Part shown: positions 3,365-8,389 of the stretch, in pieces | Layout of the letters: each line of letters starts with the position of its first letter | Numbering within the stretch: the first letter of the stretch is position 1 | Assembly (NCBI GenBank): GCA_964496765.1 | Contig: CAZCAP010000002.1 | Coordinates: forward strand, 98,476 to 106,864 | From: an uncultured archaeon | GTDB lineage: Archaea > Iainarchaeota > Iainarchaeia > Iainarchaeales > CSSED10-239 | Reading direction: 5' to 3' | Length of the DNA: 8,389 nucleotides | Made by a program: the position numbers and the translations under genes | Notes under the pieces: model-generated | What the model saw: the letters and a program-made list of their open reading frames with translations, nothing else | What the model was told of the DNA's origin: nothing | The model's database searches: none

Positions 3365-3477
3365 ATTAATATTATATGTACTCCCTTTTTTAAATATTAG
3401 ATTTTTTCCTTATCTTTATATACTTATCTAATATTAATATATATATTAAAATAAAAGTAAGATAAAAGTGAAATTAT
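3365..3477. promoter_or_regulatory. Divergent promoter region between the BofA-like/endoQ operon and the 228-aa gene
   Basis: Minus-strand TATA-like 'ATATTTAAAAAA' (plus coordinates ~3387-3397) lies 22 nt from ATG 3364, suggesting a leaderless transcript. Plus-strand 'TTTATATA' at 3415-3422 and further TATA-like runs at 3439-3450 precede ATG 3478. An AGTGA Shine-Dalgarno-like element sits at 3467-3471. Confidence 0.3.
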
Positions 3478-4164: not shown

Positions 4165-4227
4165 GAAGAAATACTGTGTTATAATTAGTGCTTATTTAGT
4201 GGGGGAATTATATCAAAAACCGAATGA

Positions 4228-4235
4228 TTTATATA
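4228..4235 (+). promoter_or_regulatory. TATA box TTTATATA for the wHTH-NTase operon
   Basis: This is the consensus archaeal TATA octamer, 22 nt upstream of ATG 4258, which favours a leaderless start at 4258. TTAGTG direct repeats at 4185-4190 and 4196-4201 (11-nt spacing) lie just upstream and are possible operator half-sites. Confidence 0.35.
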
Positions 4236-4257
4236 TTATTTGGATAATAATATAATT

Positions 4258-5127
4258 ATGACTCTAACCACAACACAACTAAGTGTATTTTATGAAATTA
4301 TAAATGAAAATAACAAACTATCATCTATATCTGATGCTCTTAATAAAAATAAAACACATATAAGTGAAATCCTAAGTATATTAATCAAAGAAAAGTTAAT
4401 CCACAAAAATAAAAATCAATTTATAATATCAAATTACCCCTTTACTATTAAATTACGCTTCTTGTTGTTAACAAATAAAAACCTAATCAATATACTGTGC
4501 GATTCTGGTATTGATATATTATTGTTATTGTTAAATAAATCAACTATAAAAGAAATTGCAACTAAGTCTGGATTAAAAGAAATAACAATTAGAAAATTTC
4601 TTCAAAAATCAAAAAATATGTCTATTATATCTAAAGAAAATAGTTATTTTTCATTAAATGAAGAAGTTTGGGGAAATTTAAAAGAGTTTTTATTGGATTA
4701 TAAATCCTTTCAGGATAGTTATGATAATAGGATCCCTCTCGGTTCAGTGATTTATTTTAAAAATAAAAAGGAAATTATTTTTTCTTATAATAAAGAACTA
4801 GACTCTGCGAGCCCAACAGCATTTACTATATTTAAAAAATATGATATATTAATATTTAGTAATGTTTGCTATTATTATTTACCTAAAAAATCATTAACTA
4901 AAAAGGATATATTAGAGCACACTCTAAAGATTGTATCTAAAACAATGGACTTTAGGGATATATTGCATCTTTCATTATTTTATATTAAGTATAAATCTGA
5001 ATTTAAAGACGTACACCATGAGATACTAGCTAATCTAAATAAGATACTTATTGGCGAAAAAGTGAATGGTTATCCCCCATTAAAAGAAATTAAAGAAAAA
5101 TTAATATTATATAATATAAGGATGTGA
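4258..5127 (+). CDS. Tandem winged-helix (2x wHTH) DNA-binding protein with a ~150-aa C-terminal domain; AbiEi-like putative regulator/antitoxin
   Basis: wHTH 1 is 'QLSVFYEIINENNKLSSISDALNKNKTHISEILSILIKEKLIHKNKNQFIIS' (aa ~7-58 from M at 4258). wHTH 2 is 'GIDILLLLLNKSTIKEIATKSGLKEITIRKFLQKSKNMSIISKENSYFSLN' (aa ~84-134). I prefer ATG 4258 to the track's TTG 4240, which is only 5 nt from the TATA box. Stop TGA 5125-5127 overlaps the next gene's start. Confidence 0.7.
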   Translation: MTLTTTQLSVFYEIINENNKLSSISDALNKNKTHISEILSILIKEKLIHKNKNQFIISNYPFTIKLRFLLLTNKNLINILCDSGIDILLLLLNKSTIKEIATKSGLKEITIRKFLQKSKNMSIISKENSYFSLNEEVWGNLKEFLLDYKSFQDSYDNRIPLGSVIYFKNKKEIIFSYNKELDSASPTAFTIFKKYDILIFSNVCYYYLPKKSLTKKDILEHTLKIVSKTMDFRDILHLSLFYIKYKSEFKDVHHEILANLNKILIGEKVNGYPPLKEIKEKLILYNIRM

Positions 5128-5804
5128 TAAGTCTTATGGAAGAATATATATCTGATTTTAAACAAGTAATTAATAAATTTGAAGACATTGATAAAGCAGT
5201 AAACCGAAAACTTAATATTTATTTAATTGGTGGTGCTGTTCTACTATATGCAAAACTAAAATCAGGAACTAAAGATATAGATTTAGTTGTAAATAATAAG
5301 AAAGATTATGAACTATTAACAACTGTTTTAAAGAAATTAAATTTTTTAATAGAAAAACCAACAAAAGAGTATAATCGGTTTAATTTAGAAAATATATTAG
5401 TTAAAGATAACTATAGGATAGATATCTTTAATAAGATAGTTTGTAAGAACTTATTTTTAAGTAGGAATATGATTAAAAGAGCAAAGCTAGTTAAGGCCTA
5501 TAATAATATACAATTATATGTTTGTTCAAACGAGGATATCCTTGTTTTTAAAACAATAACTGATAGAGAAGGGGATATTGATGATTGTTATAATCTTTCC
5601 CTTCAAAACCTAAATTGGGATACAATCCTATCTGAGATCAAATACCAAGTAACTAAGAGCGGAAACGAGATATGGGTTACTTGGTTTGAGGAGAGATTAA
5701 ACCTCCTCGAAGATCGTAAGATCTATATTCCAATAATTAATGAGATAAGGAAGTTAAGTCACACCTATTACACAAAGCTAAAAGCAAAGCTAAATGAAGA
5801 ATAA
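5124..5804 (+). CDS. Minimal Pol-beta-superfamily nucleotidyltransferase (AbiEii / DUF2204 / DUF6036-like)
   Basis: NTase signature 'YLIGGAVLLYAKLKSGTKDIDLVV': G36-G37 (nt 5229-5234), then D51-x-D53 (nt 5274-5282). The third acidic residue is D100 in 'YRIDIF' (nt 5421-5423). The downstream helix 'EDILVFKTITDREGDIDDC' resembles the K..A.R.KD..D motif of AbiEii-type NTases. Start is GTG 5124 within ATGTGA (4-nt overlap), or ATG 5136. Confidence 0.7.
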   Translation: MISLMEEYISDFKQVINKFEDIDKAVNRKLNIYLIGGAVLLYAKLKSGTKDIDLVVNNKKDYELLTTVLKKLNFLIEKPTKEYNRFNLENILVKDNYRIDIFNKIVCKNLFLSRNMIKRAKLVKAYNNIQLYVCSNEDILVFKTITDREGDIDDCYNLSLQNLNWDTILSEIKYQVTKSGNEIWVTWFEERLNLLEDRKIYIPIINEIRKLSHTYYTKLKAKLNEE

Positions 5805-6055
5805 GTAAGTTAAATGATGTAATAGGTTAGTTATTTAATTCCTTACAGATCCTATATTATATATATAAATAAAAAACTAAAGTACTGTACTCTTTCAACC
5901 AATAGGTGTATACATAATACTGCCCATAATCAGGGTGCTTTCCTACTCTTATTCCTTTAAAAACCTATTGTTGCCTTTCCGAAATAGTAAGCTTTTTAAA
6001 TAAAACTCCTCCTTAATTATCTTACTAGGATCTGCTTTAAGGTTAGGACTTTTGA

Positions 6056-6063
6056 TTTTTTTT
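6056..6063 (+). terminator. Oligo-T (T8) tract, candidate archaeal terminator inside the long intergenic region
   Basis: T8 read directly from the sequence. Archaeal RNA polymerase terminates at oligo-T runs. Its function here is untested, and it could equally be background AT-rich sequence. Confidence 0.2.
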
Positions 6064-6158
6064 GTTCTCCTACAAATATCATACTGTAAATAATTTCGCA
6101 GGTTCAATCTTAATATCAAACAAAAAACAAATCTAGAAAGAAAAAAAAATCAAATCTT

Positions 6159-6195
6159 TTTAGATAAAAAACAAAAAAACAAAACACATGAGGTG
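6159..6195 (+). promoter_or_regulatory. Proximal promoter and ribosome-binding region of the S-layer gene: TATA-like TTTAGATA (6159-6166) and Shine-Dalgarno GAGGTG (6190-6195)
   Basis: GAGGTG lies 7 nt upstream of ATG 6203 and matches the conserved 16S 3'-end complement. The TATA-like box lies about 22-27 nt upstream of position ~6188-6193. Confidence 0.45.
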
Positions 6196-6202
6196 TAAGA
6201 AA

Positions 6203-6289
6203 ATGAAAAACATAAATGTAAGGAAAGTAGTAGCTGGAGTAGCTGCACTTGGTATTTCAGCAATGTTCGCTGGTGCTGTAGTAGCTGCT
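6203..6289 (+). other. Sec-type signal peptide of the S-layer protein
   Basis: 'MKNINVRK' is a basic n-region and 'VVAGVAALGISAMFAGAVVAA' is the hydrophobic core. The small-residue cleavage context is VVA-A / VAA-N, around aa 28-29. Confidence 0.7.
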
Positions 6290-8389
6290 AACGTTACAGA
6301 TGCTACATGGATAGCTCCAAACGCTTTAACCAAAGCTGACCTTTTCACAAACGGAGTTCCTGCATATAACATCGTACTTGGATCAATGGCAATGCCAGTT
6401 GACGTAGTATGGGCAGGTAACATCGCAGCAGCTATCGGAAAGAAAGCATACACAACAACATCTGCAGGCGGATCAGCAACTTTAGGCGACGTTGTAGTTG
6501 AAGTTGGAACATCAGGAGCAACAACAATATCTGGTGACGGTAAGTTATTTAATGACTGGGTACTAGGAACCGCTTCAGAAGAAACACTCGATGATTCTGA
6601 CTACACATTATTAAAGGATTATGATGTAAAAGTTGATGATTCATTGTTTACAGATGATTCTGAGAATGTAAAAGATAAGATTGGATTAACTGCAACAATT
6701 GCATTCGATTCTGACAAAGATGTTGCTGATTTAACAGCTACAATCCTAAAGAAAAATATCGATTACAATATAGAATTTACTCCTGCAATAAAATTGGGTG
6801 CTGATGATTCTGGAAGTCCAGATATGAAGTTCAATTTAATGGGTAAGCAATATACTGTTGAAGATTGGGATGGTGCTGTTTTAAAGTTAGTTCAAAATAA
6901 AGCAACTACACCATATTCTGTAGGAGATACTTTTGAATTAGAAGGATATACAATTGAAGTATTAACAATCCTTGAGGCATCATCAGCAGGATCTACATTT
7001 GAAGTTGAAATGTCTATAAGTGAAGATGGCGTAGTTAAAGCAACAGAAGTATACGCTGATGGAGAAACAATATTTGATGAATTCTTAACAATTGATACAT
7101 CTATTGATACTGTATACAATACAAGAATAACTGTTGTTTCTGGAACTAGTGCAAGAATGACCATAGAAAATGGAAAAGTTATTAAAGATTTCCCAAATAC
7201 AGGTGATAAAATCTGGTTTGCTGATTTAACAGAAGATGGATCTAATGGTTTATCAAAAATTAACATCTACAATAACGATGTAGATATTCAATGGAAAGAT
7301 GAAGATGCATTAAGAGTTGGAGATAAGATAACTTTACCAAACGACTTTGCTGAAATTGAATTCCTTGGATTAACAGAGGAATCTTCAAAAGTAGTAACTG
7401 TTGAAAACAATGTTTTATCATACACAGATATTACAGATGATGACCATGATTTATTTGTTTATGAAGAAGACACAGGAACATATAATTCAGGTGACACATA
7501 TACAACAACTAGTGAAATTGATGGTAAGAACTTGTATTTCACATTCACTACAGCAGTAGAAGCTGCAGTTGGAACATGGGATACCTGGGCAAACGGTGCA
7601 GATTCACCATATGGTGTAATTAATACAGGAACACAACAAGATGGTTATTTCACTGTTCAGTTAGATGATACAGATGGAAAGTACTTAACTGCAGATGCAG
7701 CAAACCCAACAACATGGACATGGGCAACAGAAGCAGTAGCTGGAACACCAGACATCTTACAAAAGATAGTTTACAACTCAGATGAATTTACTTCATTAAT
7801 GATACCATTATACAATAATGAAGCAAGAAAAATTGCATATGGTGTGTATGTAAGCGAATCTAGTAATTTAGTAATAGACCAAATTGGTATTGGTTTAGCT
7901 GAAGGTGCAGTAGGAACAATGGAAACAGGACAAACATGGACTGTTGGAGATATCTATATTGGAATAGATTCTGCTACAACAAAAACAGGTACATTCGTTG
8001 GTTCTACTACAGCAGTAACTGATGCAACAATCGCTAGTACAGATATGAAATCAATGTTTGAATTAAAAGTTACAGACGGTACAGATACAGCTGTAGCACA
8101 TATTGATGCATATACTGGTGATCTTGTAGATACAAGTGACAATGATTATTTCACTGGGTTACCTAACCAAGTTGAAATCGACACTGGTACAGATTATGCA
8201 TTAAACCAAGATAACTCTGATGATTTAACATGGGGTTATACAGAATTTGGTTCAAAGATTGAAGTTGATGGTGGATTATTCACTGCAACAGTTCCTGAAA
8301 AACAACTTTACGGACAAATCTTCATTGGTGGTGGAACATCATCTTCAACCACATTAAATGGTGGAGAAGTAACTTTAACAACTGTTGGC
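6203..8389 (+). CDS. S-layer-type surface protein precursor (S_layer_N-like N-terminal domain), 3'-truncated by the window edge
   Basis: I read all 729 codons from ATG 6203 to nt 8389 and found no stop. It is not in the supplied ORF track. There is an N-terminal signal peptide, followed by 'KADLFTNGVPAYNIVLGSMAMPVDVVWAGNIAAAIGKKAY', which matches the conserved N-terminal block of Methanococcales/Thermococcales S-layer proteins (PF05123) as I recall it. The protein is acidic, rich in Thr/Asp/Gly/Val/Ala and Cys-free. Codon bias is strong (GCA/GCT, GTA/GTT, ACA, GGT/GGA, GAT, GAA). An alternative in-frame ATG at 6188 would add MRCKK. Confidence 0.85.
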   Translation, partial: MKNINVRKVVAGVAALGISAMFAGAVVAANVTDATWIAPNALTKADLFTNGVPAYNIVLGSMAMPVDVVWAGNIAAAIGKKAYTTTSAGGSATLGDVVVEVGTSGATTISGDGKLFNDWVLGTASEETLDDSDYTLLKDYDVKVDDSLFTDDSENVKDKIGLTATIAFDSDKDVADLTATILKKNIDYNIEFTPAIKLGADDSGSPDMKFNLMGKQYTVEDWDGAVLKLVQNKATTPYSVGDTFELEGYTIEVLTILEASSAGSTFEVEMSISEDGVVKATEVYADGETIFDEFLTIDTSIDTVYNTRITVVSGTSARMTIENGKVIKDFPNTGDKIWFADLTEDGSNGLSKINIYNNDVDIQWKDEDALRVGDKITLPNDFAEIEFLGLTEESSKVVTVENNVLSYTDITDDDHDLFVYEEDTGTYNSGDTYTTTSEIDGKNLYFTFTTAVEAAVGTWDTWANGADSPYGVINTGTQQDGYFTVQLDDTDGKYLTADAANPTTWTWATEAVAGTPDILQKIVYNSDEFTSLMIPLYNNEARKIAYGVYVSESSNLVIDQIGIGLAEGAVGTMETGQTWTVGDIYIGIDSATTKTGTFVGSTTAVTDATIASTDMKSMFELKVTDGTDTAVAHIDAYTGDLVDTSDNDYFTGLPNQVEIDTGTDYALNQDNSDDLTWGYTEFGSKIEVDGGLFTATVPEKQLYGQIFIGGGTSSSTTLNGGEVTLTTVG

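Follow-up and report, generated by a model that had tools for sequence, protein, structure and literature searches.

A winged-helix regulator and DUF6036 nucleotidyltransferase gene pair from an uncultured archaeon: a candidate AbiE/MenAT-like toxin–antitoxin module

We examined a two-gene unit within an 8,389-nucleotide stretch of DNA (hereafter, the window) from an uncultured archaeon of the Iainarchaeales (GenBank assembly GCA_964496765.1, contig CAZCAP010000002.1, positions 98,476 to 106,864). Gene 1 (window positions 4258–5127, plus strand) encodes a 289-amino acid protein comprising two winged helices and a C-terminal domain, a putative autorepressor and partner or neutralizer of the enzyme encoded next to it. 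That enzyme, the product of gene 2 (5136–5804, plus strand), is a nucleotidyltransferase (NTase) of the DUF6036 family. The pair lies behind a palindromic promoter and is examined here as a candidate toxin–antitoxin module. An earlier reading of the letters alone (hereafter, the original prediction) had described it as a divergent AbiE-like pair, and the outcome of its claims is given with the results that bear on them.

Gene 2 matched PF19502 (DUF6036) at 36.9 bits against a curated gathering cut-off of 23.6. In an alignment of 45 homologs, all 45 matched DUF6036 and 14 also matched DUF2204 (PF09970). Neither the AbiEii family (PF08843, DUF1814) nor any model of the defense-system detector PADLOC matched gene 2 at E ≤ 1, and the list of the 25 families matched most often by the alignment (E ≤ 0.1) does not contain PF08843. 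The NTase is thus nearer to DUF2204/DUF6036 than to AbiEii, as originally proposed. Searches of gene 2 against PDB chains by sequence and by profile returned no match.

By its motifs, gene 2 encodes a catalytically complete Pol-beta-type NTase (residues are counted from GTG 5124 throughout). Motifs I and II (5229–5282, plus strand) consist of G36-G37, 11 intervening residues, and T49-K50-D51-I52-D53; the third catalytic acid is D100 (5421–5423, plus strand); and K143, R148, D151, and D154 (FKTITDREGDIDD, 5550–5585, plus strand) follow in an order like that of DUF1814 motifs III (K...R) and IV (D). All of these residues are invariant across the 45 sequences except K50, conserved in at least 90%, and I52; R119, E137, D138, W165, E171, Q175, W184, and R191 are invariant as well. 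The claim of a complete NTase signature therefore holds (G36, G37, D51, D53, D100, R148, D151, and D154). The AlphaFold model (predicted local distance difference test score, pLDDT, 91) places an NTase alpha/beta core before a helical bundle, with T49 on the loop preceding the catalytic strand (residues 51–56). T49 is kept even in haloarchaeal homologs of 32% identity and in divergent paralogs.

The position of this threonine matters for comparison with toxins. In MenT1, MenT3, and AbiEii, antitoxin binding leads to auto-phosphorylation of a serine or threonine that lies two positions ahead of the first catalytic Asp (PMC11375011; bioRxiv 10.64898/2026.01.19.700257), the acceptors being MenT1 T39, MenT3 S78, and AbiEii T65 (PMC11375011; bioRxiv 10.64898/2026.01.19.700257; PMC3985639). 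The conserved core of MenT1 comprises T39, R40, D41, K137, and D152 (PMC11375011), and that of AbiEii comprises T65, D67, D69, K173/R180, and D192 (PMC3985639; bioRxiv 10.64898/2026.01.19.700257). Compared by motif rather than by residue-level structural alignment, T49/D51/D53, K143, and D151/D154 of gene 2 correspond to both cores.

When the gene 2 model was compared with the PDB by Foldseek, the MenT1 toxin of Mycobacterium tuberculosis ranked first (8an5_B, E = 2e-6), followed, among the best 13 matches, by TM1012, LnuA, JHP933, ANT(2'')-Ia, and TglT/MenT3. The presence of LnuA (4fo1, TM-scores 0.45/0.61) and ANT(2'')-Ia (5cfu, 0.50/0.62), equal to the toxin matches, raises another reading: a resistance operon in which the NTase inactivates an antibiotic or metabolite in the manner of Lnu(A) or ANT(2'')-Ia, and the C-terminal domain of gene 1 senses the compound and derepresses transcription. 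A repressor-plus-enzyme layout would fit. We consider it improbable. No sequence or profile match to the Lnu or ANT families was found, including the PDB chains of LnuA and ANT(2''); a sensor would not be expected to fuse to the enzyme, as occurs in relatives described below; at least two copies with insulated operators can share one genome; and the settings of the pair, plasmid replication backbones and DPANN symbionts, suggest no plausible common drug. With the fold shared so widely, the T-K-D-x-D, K, DxxD active-site pattern appears the more telling indication of toxin likeness.

Divergent DUF6036 paralogs were also found adjoining canonical pairs at three related loci (L016, 4374–5033; L045, 2676–3335; L070, 6666–7325, minus strand). 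They match the gene 2 profile at E-values of 1e-23 to 1e-32 and retain the catalytic motifs, and no gene 1-type partner could be recognized for them.

The gene 1 product was modeled with a pLDDT of 94 as two winged-helix modules (approximately residues 1–60 and 84–133) followed by an alpha/beta C-terminal domain (136–289), in agreement with the two modules and the domain of about 150 residues first proposed. Winged-helix domain 1 (4258–4437, plus strand) contains helices at residues 5–15, 21–28, and 32–44 and strands at 48–51 and 54–57; winged-helix domain 2 (4507–4656, plus strand) contains helices at 84–90, 97–104, and 108–120 and strands at 124–127 and 130–133. Profile matches of gene 1 to winged-helix families were all sub-threshold. 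Winged-helix 1 gave such matches to TrmB, HTH_27, and Lrs14, together with a profile match to PDB 2lvs, and Csa3-type winged helix-turn-helix (wHTH) matches fell over winged-helix 2, at residues 84–146. Sequence and profile searches of gene 1 against PDB chains retrieved generic wHTH regulators only.

The C-terminal domain (4663–5124, plus strand; 154 residues) is the best-conserved part of gene 1. Every invariant column of the alignment lies at or beyond residue 134 (N134, Y166, F175, F189, Y206, P273, and Y285), and tyrosines are prominent: Y166, Y206, and Y285 are invariant, Y207 and Y272 nearly so, and a YYYLPKK motif is present. A profile of the domain matched only 335 of 1.84 billion cluster representatives; these are, with few exceptions, proteins of ~285 amino acids with the same architecture, and some relatives are one-wHTH variants of ~220 amino acids. 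In five such representatives of 216–228 amino acids (P0161, P0221, P0225, P0239, and P0266), the C-terminal domain begins after only ~70 residues. These short forms probably carry a single winged helix, a plan that would be nearer to AbiEi.

No relative of known function could be detected for the fold of the C-terminal domain. Its sole family signal was a weak, sub-threshold one to PF24271 (HVO_2833_C), and PF24270 (HTH_Cmi2_C) gave a sub-threshold match in profile scans of the gene 1 family. In the literature searched, no paper mentions HVO_2833, and "Cmi2" combined with archaea yields unrelated papers only. Beyond the wHTH parts, no fold match to PDB or BFVD entries appeared among the best 50 listed. 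We dismissed the idea that the domain is a degenerate NTase paralog (hhalign probability, 0.3%). An attempt to tie it to a known family through distant homologs failed: the relatives share the same architecture, and the PF24271 signal is sub-threshold.

The conserved tyrosines bear on a reading with the roles reversed. MNT antitoxins AMPylate a tyrosine of their HEPN toxins, and gene 2 could by analogy be an antitoxin that nucleotidylates the C-terminal domain of gene 1, itself the growth-inhibiting part. The invariant tyrosines, the YYYLPKK motif, and the stronger conservation of this domain relative to the winged helices would suit such an arrangement. We nonetheless regard it as very improbable. 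The DNA-binding autorepressor function normally resides in the antitoxin; neither Pfam nor a fold search gives any sign of HEPN likeness in the C-terminal domain; and the NTase active site resembles that of MenT/AbiEii rather than that of MNT proteins, a bona fide MNT antitoxin of a neighboring HEPN–MNT pair having the differing motif GS...EDSDFD, which ends in SDFD.

The boundaries of both genes were reassessed. Homolog N-termini and an independent gene call (289 amino acids) back ATG 4258 as the gene 1 start in preference to TTG 4240, which had come from an open reading frame (ORF) listing. Gene 1 closes with ATG-TGA (5122–5127; stop codon, 5125–5127), and the original prediction took these letters as an overlap with gene 2. 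A GTG at 5124 is indeed present in frame with the gene 2 ORF and would give 226 amino acids; however, close homologs open with M-[EQ]-E-Y-I, and in the gene call for the source contig the start is at the equivalent of ATG 5136 (222 amino acids). ATG 5136 is therefore most likely the start, the overlapping GTG was dropped, and the junction is most likely an 8-nucleotide spacer. A Shine–Dalgarno-like sequence, GGATGTGAT (5120–5128, plus strand), lies 7 nucleotides 5' of ATG 5136, overlaps the gene 1 stop codon, and is a putative ribosome-binding site for gene 2; no such motif precedes the first genes of neighboring transcription units.

Upstream of gene 1 lies an imperfect 52-bp palindrome (4206–4257), a putative operator. 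The TATA box TTTATATA (4228–4235, plus strand) contains its center, which is between 4231 and 4232, and its 3' end abuts the start codon. The outer half-sites, AATTATAT (4206–4213) and ATATAATT (4250–4257, directly abutting ATG 4258), are complementary at 8/8 positions. Nested within them are the inner half-sites AACCGAA (4218–4224), which overlaps the expected position of the B recognition element (BRE), and TTTGGAT (4239–4245), complementary at 5/7 positions. Across the full arms (4206–4231 and 4232–4257), 19 of 26 positions pair (73%), a level reached by 0/200 shuffles. The TATA box had been noted earlier, and its presence is confirmed; the octamer alone is not significant (3 copies in the window versus 2.2 expected), and its significance derives from its conserved position across loci. 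Archaeal TATA boxes are centered ~26–27 nucleotides upstream of the transcription start. The center of TTTATATA lies 26.5 nucleotides 5' of the A of ATG 4258, and a leaderless gene 1 transcript is therefore predicted. A second copy of the octamer (3415–3422) lies 56 nucleotides 5' of the MJ0538-family gene (PF27325, 3478–4164), where the spacing implies a leadered transcript, unlike that of gene 1; the third is on the minus strand (5862–5869) in the gap after gene 2.

The design recurs across the family. With the palindrome center left unrestricted within the 90 nucleotides 5' of gene 1 at 68 loci, the best center fell at −26 (40 loci), −27 (10 loci), or −28 (5 loci) from the ATG, or 55/68 in all. 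The arm sequences themselves vary: ATGCGAA/TTCGCAT, ACCGAA/TTCGGT, CCGCTAAA/TTTAACGG, CCACTAAA/TTTAGTGG, and GTATAC/ATATAC, among others. Within a locus, arm complementarity averaged 15.93/25 versus 13.18 ± 0.24 (maximum, 14.04) when right arms were permuted among loci; the corresponding values for the outer arms were 5.66/8 versus 3.84 ± 0.15. In-register pairing was 13.66/22 and fell to 6.5–9.3 after the partner was slid by 1–3 nucleotides. A relative with 89% identity (L107) has a perfect inner pair, CCGAAT/ATTCGG, and sequence similarity between it and the window starts near the outer arm. Two haloarchaeal plasmid promoters show the same nested, TATA-centered design in other sequence: GTAAC, CGAAACTT, ct, TTATATA, ca, AAGTTTCG, and GTTAC, followed by the start codon.

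Partial Mantel tests related arm similarity to similarity of the winged-helix recognition regions, with C-terminal-domain identity controlled. Inner-arm similarity tracked winged-helix 1 (partial r = 0.235; 0/500 permutations) and not winged-helix 2 (0.037, not significant), whereas outer-arm similarity tracked winged-helix 2 (0.231; 0/500 permutations) and not winged-helix 1 (0.020, not significant). Shared ancestry inflates these statistics yet does not predict such a double dissociation. Given that the arms covary with the two winged-helix domains, a gene 1 dimer very probably binds the operator. With the TATA box, the expected BRE position, and the start of transcription all lying under the palindrome, such binding is expected to be repressive, and autorepression by gene 1 is a straightforward inference. 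The operon's own promoter is the only conserved operator that we found.

To place the pair in context, we compiled a set of 92 related loci. Archaeal and bacterial assemblies, one genome per species, supplied 80 of them, and metagenome assemblies and plasmids the rest. A gene 1 homolog lay directly 5' of the NTase gene on the same strand at all 72 loci with enough upstream DNA, upholding the expected synteny, and no intact NTase of the gene 2 subfamily without a gene 1 partner occurred among them. An automatic adjacency rule failed at two loci, which proved on inspection to be an overlap artifact (L039) and a frameshifted NTase (L010). The hosts are DPANN archaea, Methanosarcina, Methanofastidiosum, and two bins labeled Omnitrophota and Nomurabacteria, bacterial labels that could stem from binning. 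Most gaps between the genes range from −4 to +10 nucleotides (4-nucleotide overlaps or 1- to 10-nucleotide gaps), making tight coupling a family trait. We also considered gene decay as an indirect sign of toxicity, which was uninformative: only the L010 copy (6005–6674) is disrupted, by a frameshift inside the GG motif region for which an assembly error in the metagenome-assembled genome (MAG) is possible, and the NTase genes of L025, L039, and L084 proved to be intact or masked.

At least five cluster representatives (518–555 amino acids) combine all of gene 1 with the NTase in one protein and add a third winged helix. The order is wHTH–wHTH–C-terminal domain–DUF6036–wHTH, with intact catalytic motifs. 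Natural fusions of this kind are classical evidence for direct contact between the C-terminal domain and the NTase as they function, and in the two-protein form the gene 1 C-terminal domain probably contacts the NTase. Five such fusions are P0272, P0273, P0274, P0277, and P0283; the gene for P0273 (L093, 4001–5653) is flanked by genes for an Lhr-type helicase and a protein of metallo-beta-lactamase fold, with a histone gene close by.

The gene order on the source contig is DnaK, DnaJ, RtcB, Prs, DUF3368/PIN, ribbon-helix-helix (RHH)/UPF0175, MJ0043-like, small membrane protein, MJ0538-like, gene 1, gene 2, and a large secreted S-layer-like protein. Relatives that share the prs–MJ0538–S-layer synteny, with MJ0538 proteins 83% and 57% identical to that of the window, lack the pair. 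Because these syntenic relatives have an empty site, the pair is read as an inserted cassette. The original prediction had argued for an accessory origin from base composition. The raw GC content of the pair is indeed lower than that of the window (0.246 versus 0.305), whereas GC content at third codon positions is ordinary (gene 1, 0.186; gene 2, 0.224; prs, 0.218; MJ0043-like gene, 0.212). Composition is consequently not evidence of foreign origin, and the accessory character stands on the empty site.

The interval between the MJ0538-like and S-layer-like genes is itself a variable hot spot (window, 4165–6187; L098, 5685–6873; L100, 3627–5836; L107, 204–2041). In the window it holds the pair; in L098, a 295-amino acid protein that matches no Pfam family; in L100, an AAA_14 + DUF4143 ATPase; and in L107, an ATPase and the pair. 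In L102–L104, where it spans 340–626 nucleotides, it holds no gene. The large S-layer-like ORF beyond it (6188–8389) begins with an N-terminal signal-like sequence (MRCKKMKNINVRKVVAGVAALG...), encodes at least 730 amino acids, and runs past the window end; identity to its relatives drops fast, from 75% to 31%, in contrast to the conserved housekeeping genes that flank it. Elsewhere in the window, a DUF3368 PIN-like gene (894–1394) overlaps the RHH/UPF0175 gene (1378–1788) by 17 nucleotides, the toxin-like gene coming first. This PIN–RHH pair is present in L098–L100 (prs ~90% identical) and absent in the more distant syntenic relatives L102–L106, in which the MJ0043-like gene comes immediately after prs. 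Its presence and absence among relatives make it look like a second inserted toxin–antitoxin-type cassette in the region.

Across the related loci, the flanks are heterogeneous. The 149 neighboring proteins contain 123 Pfam families, none in more than four, and mix housekeeping functions with Fic, ParE, HEPN/MNT, Cas4, and true AbiEi. Neither a conserved third gene nor a defense-island signature was found among these 149 neighbors. Multiple copies occur: L002 has two pairs 4 kb apart on one contig with differing operators and recognition helices, L075 has a tandem arrangement, and one MAG carries single copies on two contigs.

Homologs of the NTase occur on 94 plasmids in PLSDB, nearly all from Halobacteria, at 31–34% identity among the matches listed. 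We examined the gene neighborhoods of eight. Seven have an annotated "MarR family" gene 5' of the NTase gene, overlapping it by 4 nucleotides in six and parted from it by an inserted TnpB gene in the seventh (L091); in the eighth, a Methanohalobium plasmid, an unnamed gene 1 homolog lies 2 nucleotides 5' of the NTase. The haloarchaeal "MarR" protein is itself a gene 1 homolog (E = 4e-22; C-terminal domain, E = 6e-6). The pair is close to orc4 or orc1/cdc6 in four plasmids and beside an integrase in one. A conserved backbone surrounds the pair at L085, L087, L088, and L092, usually in the order type-B DNA polymerase, Orc4 or orc1/cdc6, a 107-amino acid protein, the MarR-like/DUF6036 pair, a 271-amino acid protein whose CxCxnCxH motif is SWIM-like, and lastly a protein of ArdC-like or ImmA/IrrE type. 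Several of these plasmids are typed MPF_T. On the Halobaculum roseum plasmid NZ_CP082287.1 (L091, 2661–5771), a gene for TnpB, of the RNA-guided endonuclease family, lies between regulator and NTase and cuts an apparently intact NTase off from its promoter and partner.

The fusions and the plasmid contexts together invite a non-toxic interpretation, in which the two proteins form an enzyme–repressor complex reminiscent of BirA or NadR. Here the NTase would bind or convert a nucleotide or metabolite and, through the C-terminal domain of gene 1, modulate DNA binding by that protein. The complex would thereby govern the operon that encodes it and perhaps also genes for replication or maintenance of the carrier element. 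Single polypeptides with three winged helices, the extra C-terminal winged helix on haloarchaeal NTases, and the adjacency to orc4 and polB in plasmid backbones are all in line with it, as are the housekeeping contexts of the fused form and of many DPANN copies and the great rarity of NTase pseudogenes. It is harder to reconcile with a conserved operator confined to the operon's own promoter and with a T-x-D-x-D, K, D core that matches toxin NTases. The strong divergence of operators and recognition helices between paralogs on one contig and the presence or absence of the pair between close relatives are, moreover, typical of selfish cassettes. On balance we think this interpretation unlikely.

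We favor instead, at a probability of roughly one-half, the reading that the pair is an AbiE/MenAT-like toxin–antitoxin module of a new family pair, self-contained, horizontally mobile, and autoregulated. It is favored because the layout matches AbiE/MenAT3 and the active site bears the hallmarks of that toxin group. The layout consists of a putative autorepressor gene followed by a tightly coupled NTase gene, evidence of contact between the products, insulated operator specificities between paralogs, presence/absence variation between close relatives, and residence in plasmid maintenance regions.

A mechanism can be proposed along these lines. A single leaderless bicistronic transcript would start at the gene 1 ATG, with the TATA box at the exact center of the 52-bp nested palindrome. 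A gene 1 dimer would bind this palindrome, winged-helix 1 on the inner half-sites and winged-helix 2 on the outer, and repress the operon. The Pol-beta-type NTase, always encoded directly 3' of gene 1 at the 72 loci and sometimes fused to its C-terminal domain, would be bound by that domain and kept inactive, as MenA/AbiEi do with MenT/AbiEii, whether by sequestration, by induced auto-phosphorylation of T49, or by both. Free NTase would nucleotidylate an essential RNA, by analogy most likely tRNA 3' ends, and arrest translation. Release could follow loss of the element (plasmid addiction) or viral shut-off of host gene expression. The fuller proposal, that DUF6036 and its partner with two wHTH domains and a C-terminal domain constitute an unrecognized archaeal family of NTase toxin–antitoxin (or fused, autoinhibited defense) systems in which the partner's C-terminal domain acts through T49 auto-phosphorylation and its tandem winged helices read a four-half-site operator across the TATA box, is more tentative, and we hold it to be possible rather than probable.

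Several observations weigh against the toxin–antitoxin reading. Neither protein matches an AbiE, MenAT, or other PADLOC model, or PF08843, and searches of the available structure libraries revealed no resemblance of the gene 1 C-terminal domain to the domains of AbiEi or MenA. The TM-scores of TM1012, LnuA, and ANT(2'')-Ia (0.45–0.50/0.60–0.62) equal or exceed those of MenT1 (0.45/0.54), so that fold alone does not say "toxin." An NTase with its own winged helix, as in Halobacteria and in the fusion proteins, is unusual for a toxin. No NTase homolog was found in the viral contigs or phage genomes searched, and no paper in the literature searched mentions DUF6036. The covariation tests cannot fully remove shared ancestry. 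A DPANN MNT–HEPN fusion conserved in housekeeping contexts has been read as possible domestication (PMC6393860); the rarity of decay in the present family (1/72 NTase genes frameshifted) and its DPANN housekeeping contexts could likewise mean a domesticated, non-toxic role.

Known defense and toxin–antitoxin systems are sparse in Archaea. A conserved cassette with an obligatory partner would for the first time set DUF6036 in a functional context, and it would be a further candidate system that current detectors such as PADLOC miss. If auto-phosphorylation at T49 is true, its induction in NTases by antitoxins would predate the DUF1814 family and extend beyond it, and the MenT/AbiEii "type VII" mechanism would reach another NTase family, DPANN archaea, and haloarchaeal plasmid maintenance backbones. 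Because the Halobacteria that host the plasmids are cultivable and genetically tractable, the toxin/antitoxin, plasmid-stability, and virus-defense predictions are directly testable. The covariation between operator and winged helices is, at the level of sequence, an additional and self-standing result. From the 68 naturally occurring promoter variants, a recognition code for winged helices could be worked out, with winged-helix 1 set against the inner half-sites and winged-helix 2 against the outer, and the operator would exemplify repression by direct occlusion of the archaeal TATA box on a leaderless gene.

Among known systems, AbiE (AbiEi/AbiEii; COG5340 with COG2253/DUF1814, PF08843), from Streptococcus agalactiae and Lactococcus, is one of the closest: like the window pair, it is bicistronic, with a wHTH-plus-C-terminal-domain regulator first and a Pol-beta-type NTase second. 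The order of NTase motifs (GG/GS, [ST]-x-D-x-D, K...R, D) is shared, gene 2 having Thr at the AbiEii T65 position, and AbiE is also carried on mobile elements in a plasmid-stabilizing context. Autoregulation through promoter inverted repeats has been demonstrated for AbiEi, whereas for gene 1 it is inferred from covariation. The differences are substantial. Gene 2 belongs to DUF6036, not DUF1814, is shorter (222 amino acids), and differs in motif III/IV spacing; gene 1 has two winged helices where AbiEi has one; the window operator is a single nested palindrome centered on an archaeal TATA box; and fused single-protein forms exist in the window family. Gene 1 matched no AbiEi model in Pfam or PADLOC, and AbiEi (6y8q) was not among its best 50 fold matches listed. 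PADLOC AbiEi models do match 2/149 neighboring archaeal proteins at ~1e-24, so the models work on such genomes. The original AbiE-like label thus survives as a description of a regulator-first, coupled, accessory NTase module and not as membership in AbiE, and its "type IV" designation is dated, AbiE now being argued to be type VII, with antitoxin-induced auto-phosphorylation of the toxin (bioRxiv 10.64898/2026.01.19.700257).

MenAT1 and MenAT3 of M. tuberculosis are likewise informative. MenT1 gave the best Foldseek E-value for gene 2, and MenT3/TglT also matches; the MenT toxins are of similar size (~190–220 amino acids) and have the T-[KR]-D core, the catalytic Lys, and the downstream Asp in common with it, at 13–16% sequence identity and TM-scores of 0.41–0.54. 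MenA1, unlike gene 1, is a 7-kDa helix protein without a DNA-binding domain, and MenAT1 is not autoregulated. For DUF6036, tRNA modification and auto-phosphorylation are proposed by analogy with MenT. HEPN–MNT (type VII) systems resemble the pair in being two-gene accessory modules with a Pol-beta-fold NTase, and they are common in the same genomes, also near window-type pairs. Gene 2, however, is twice the size of MNT, has a helical C-terminal domain, and carries GG...TKDID versus GS...SDxD; a Pfam scan that covered gene 1 and other window ORFs turned up no HEPN partner, as first noted, and neither did a fold search with the gene 1 C-terminal domain. PF19502 (DUF6036), to which gene 2 belongs, and PF09970 (DUF2204) are annotated as "nucleotidyltransferase of unknown function," and the annotations found describe no function, no partner with two wHTH domains and a C-terminal domain, no operator, and no mobile-cassette behavior. 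Because neither protein joins the AbiE families by profile, the window pair is better said to work, putatively, like AbiE/MenAT than to be AbiE. The kind of pair, an NTase toxin with a wHTH antitoxin, would then be a known one, and what appears to be new are the protein families that make it up and an essentially unannotated partner domain.

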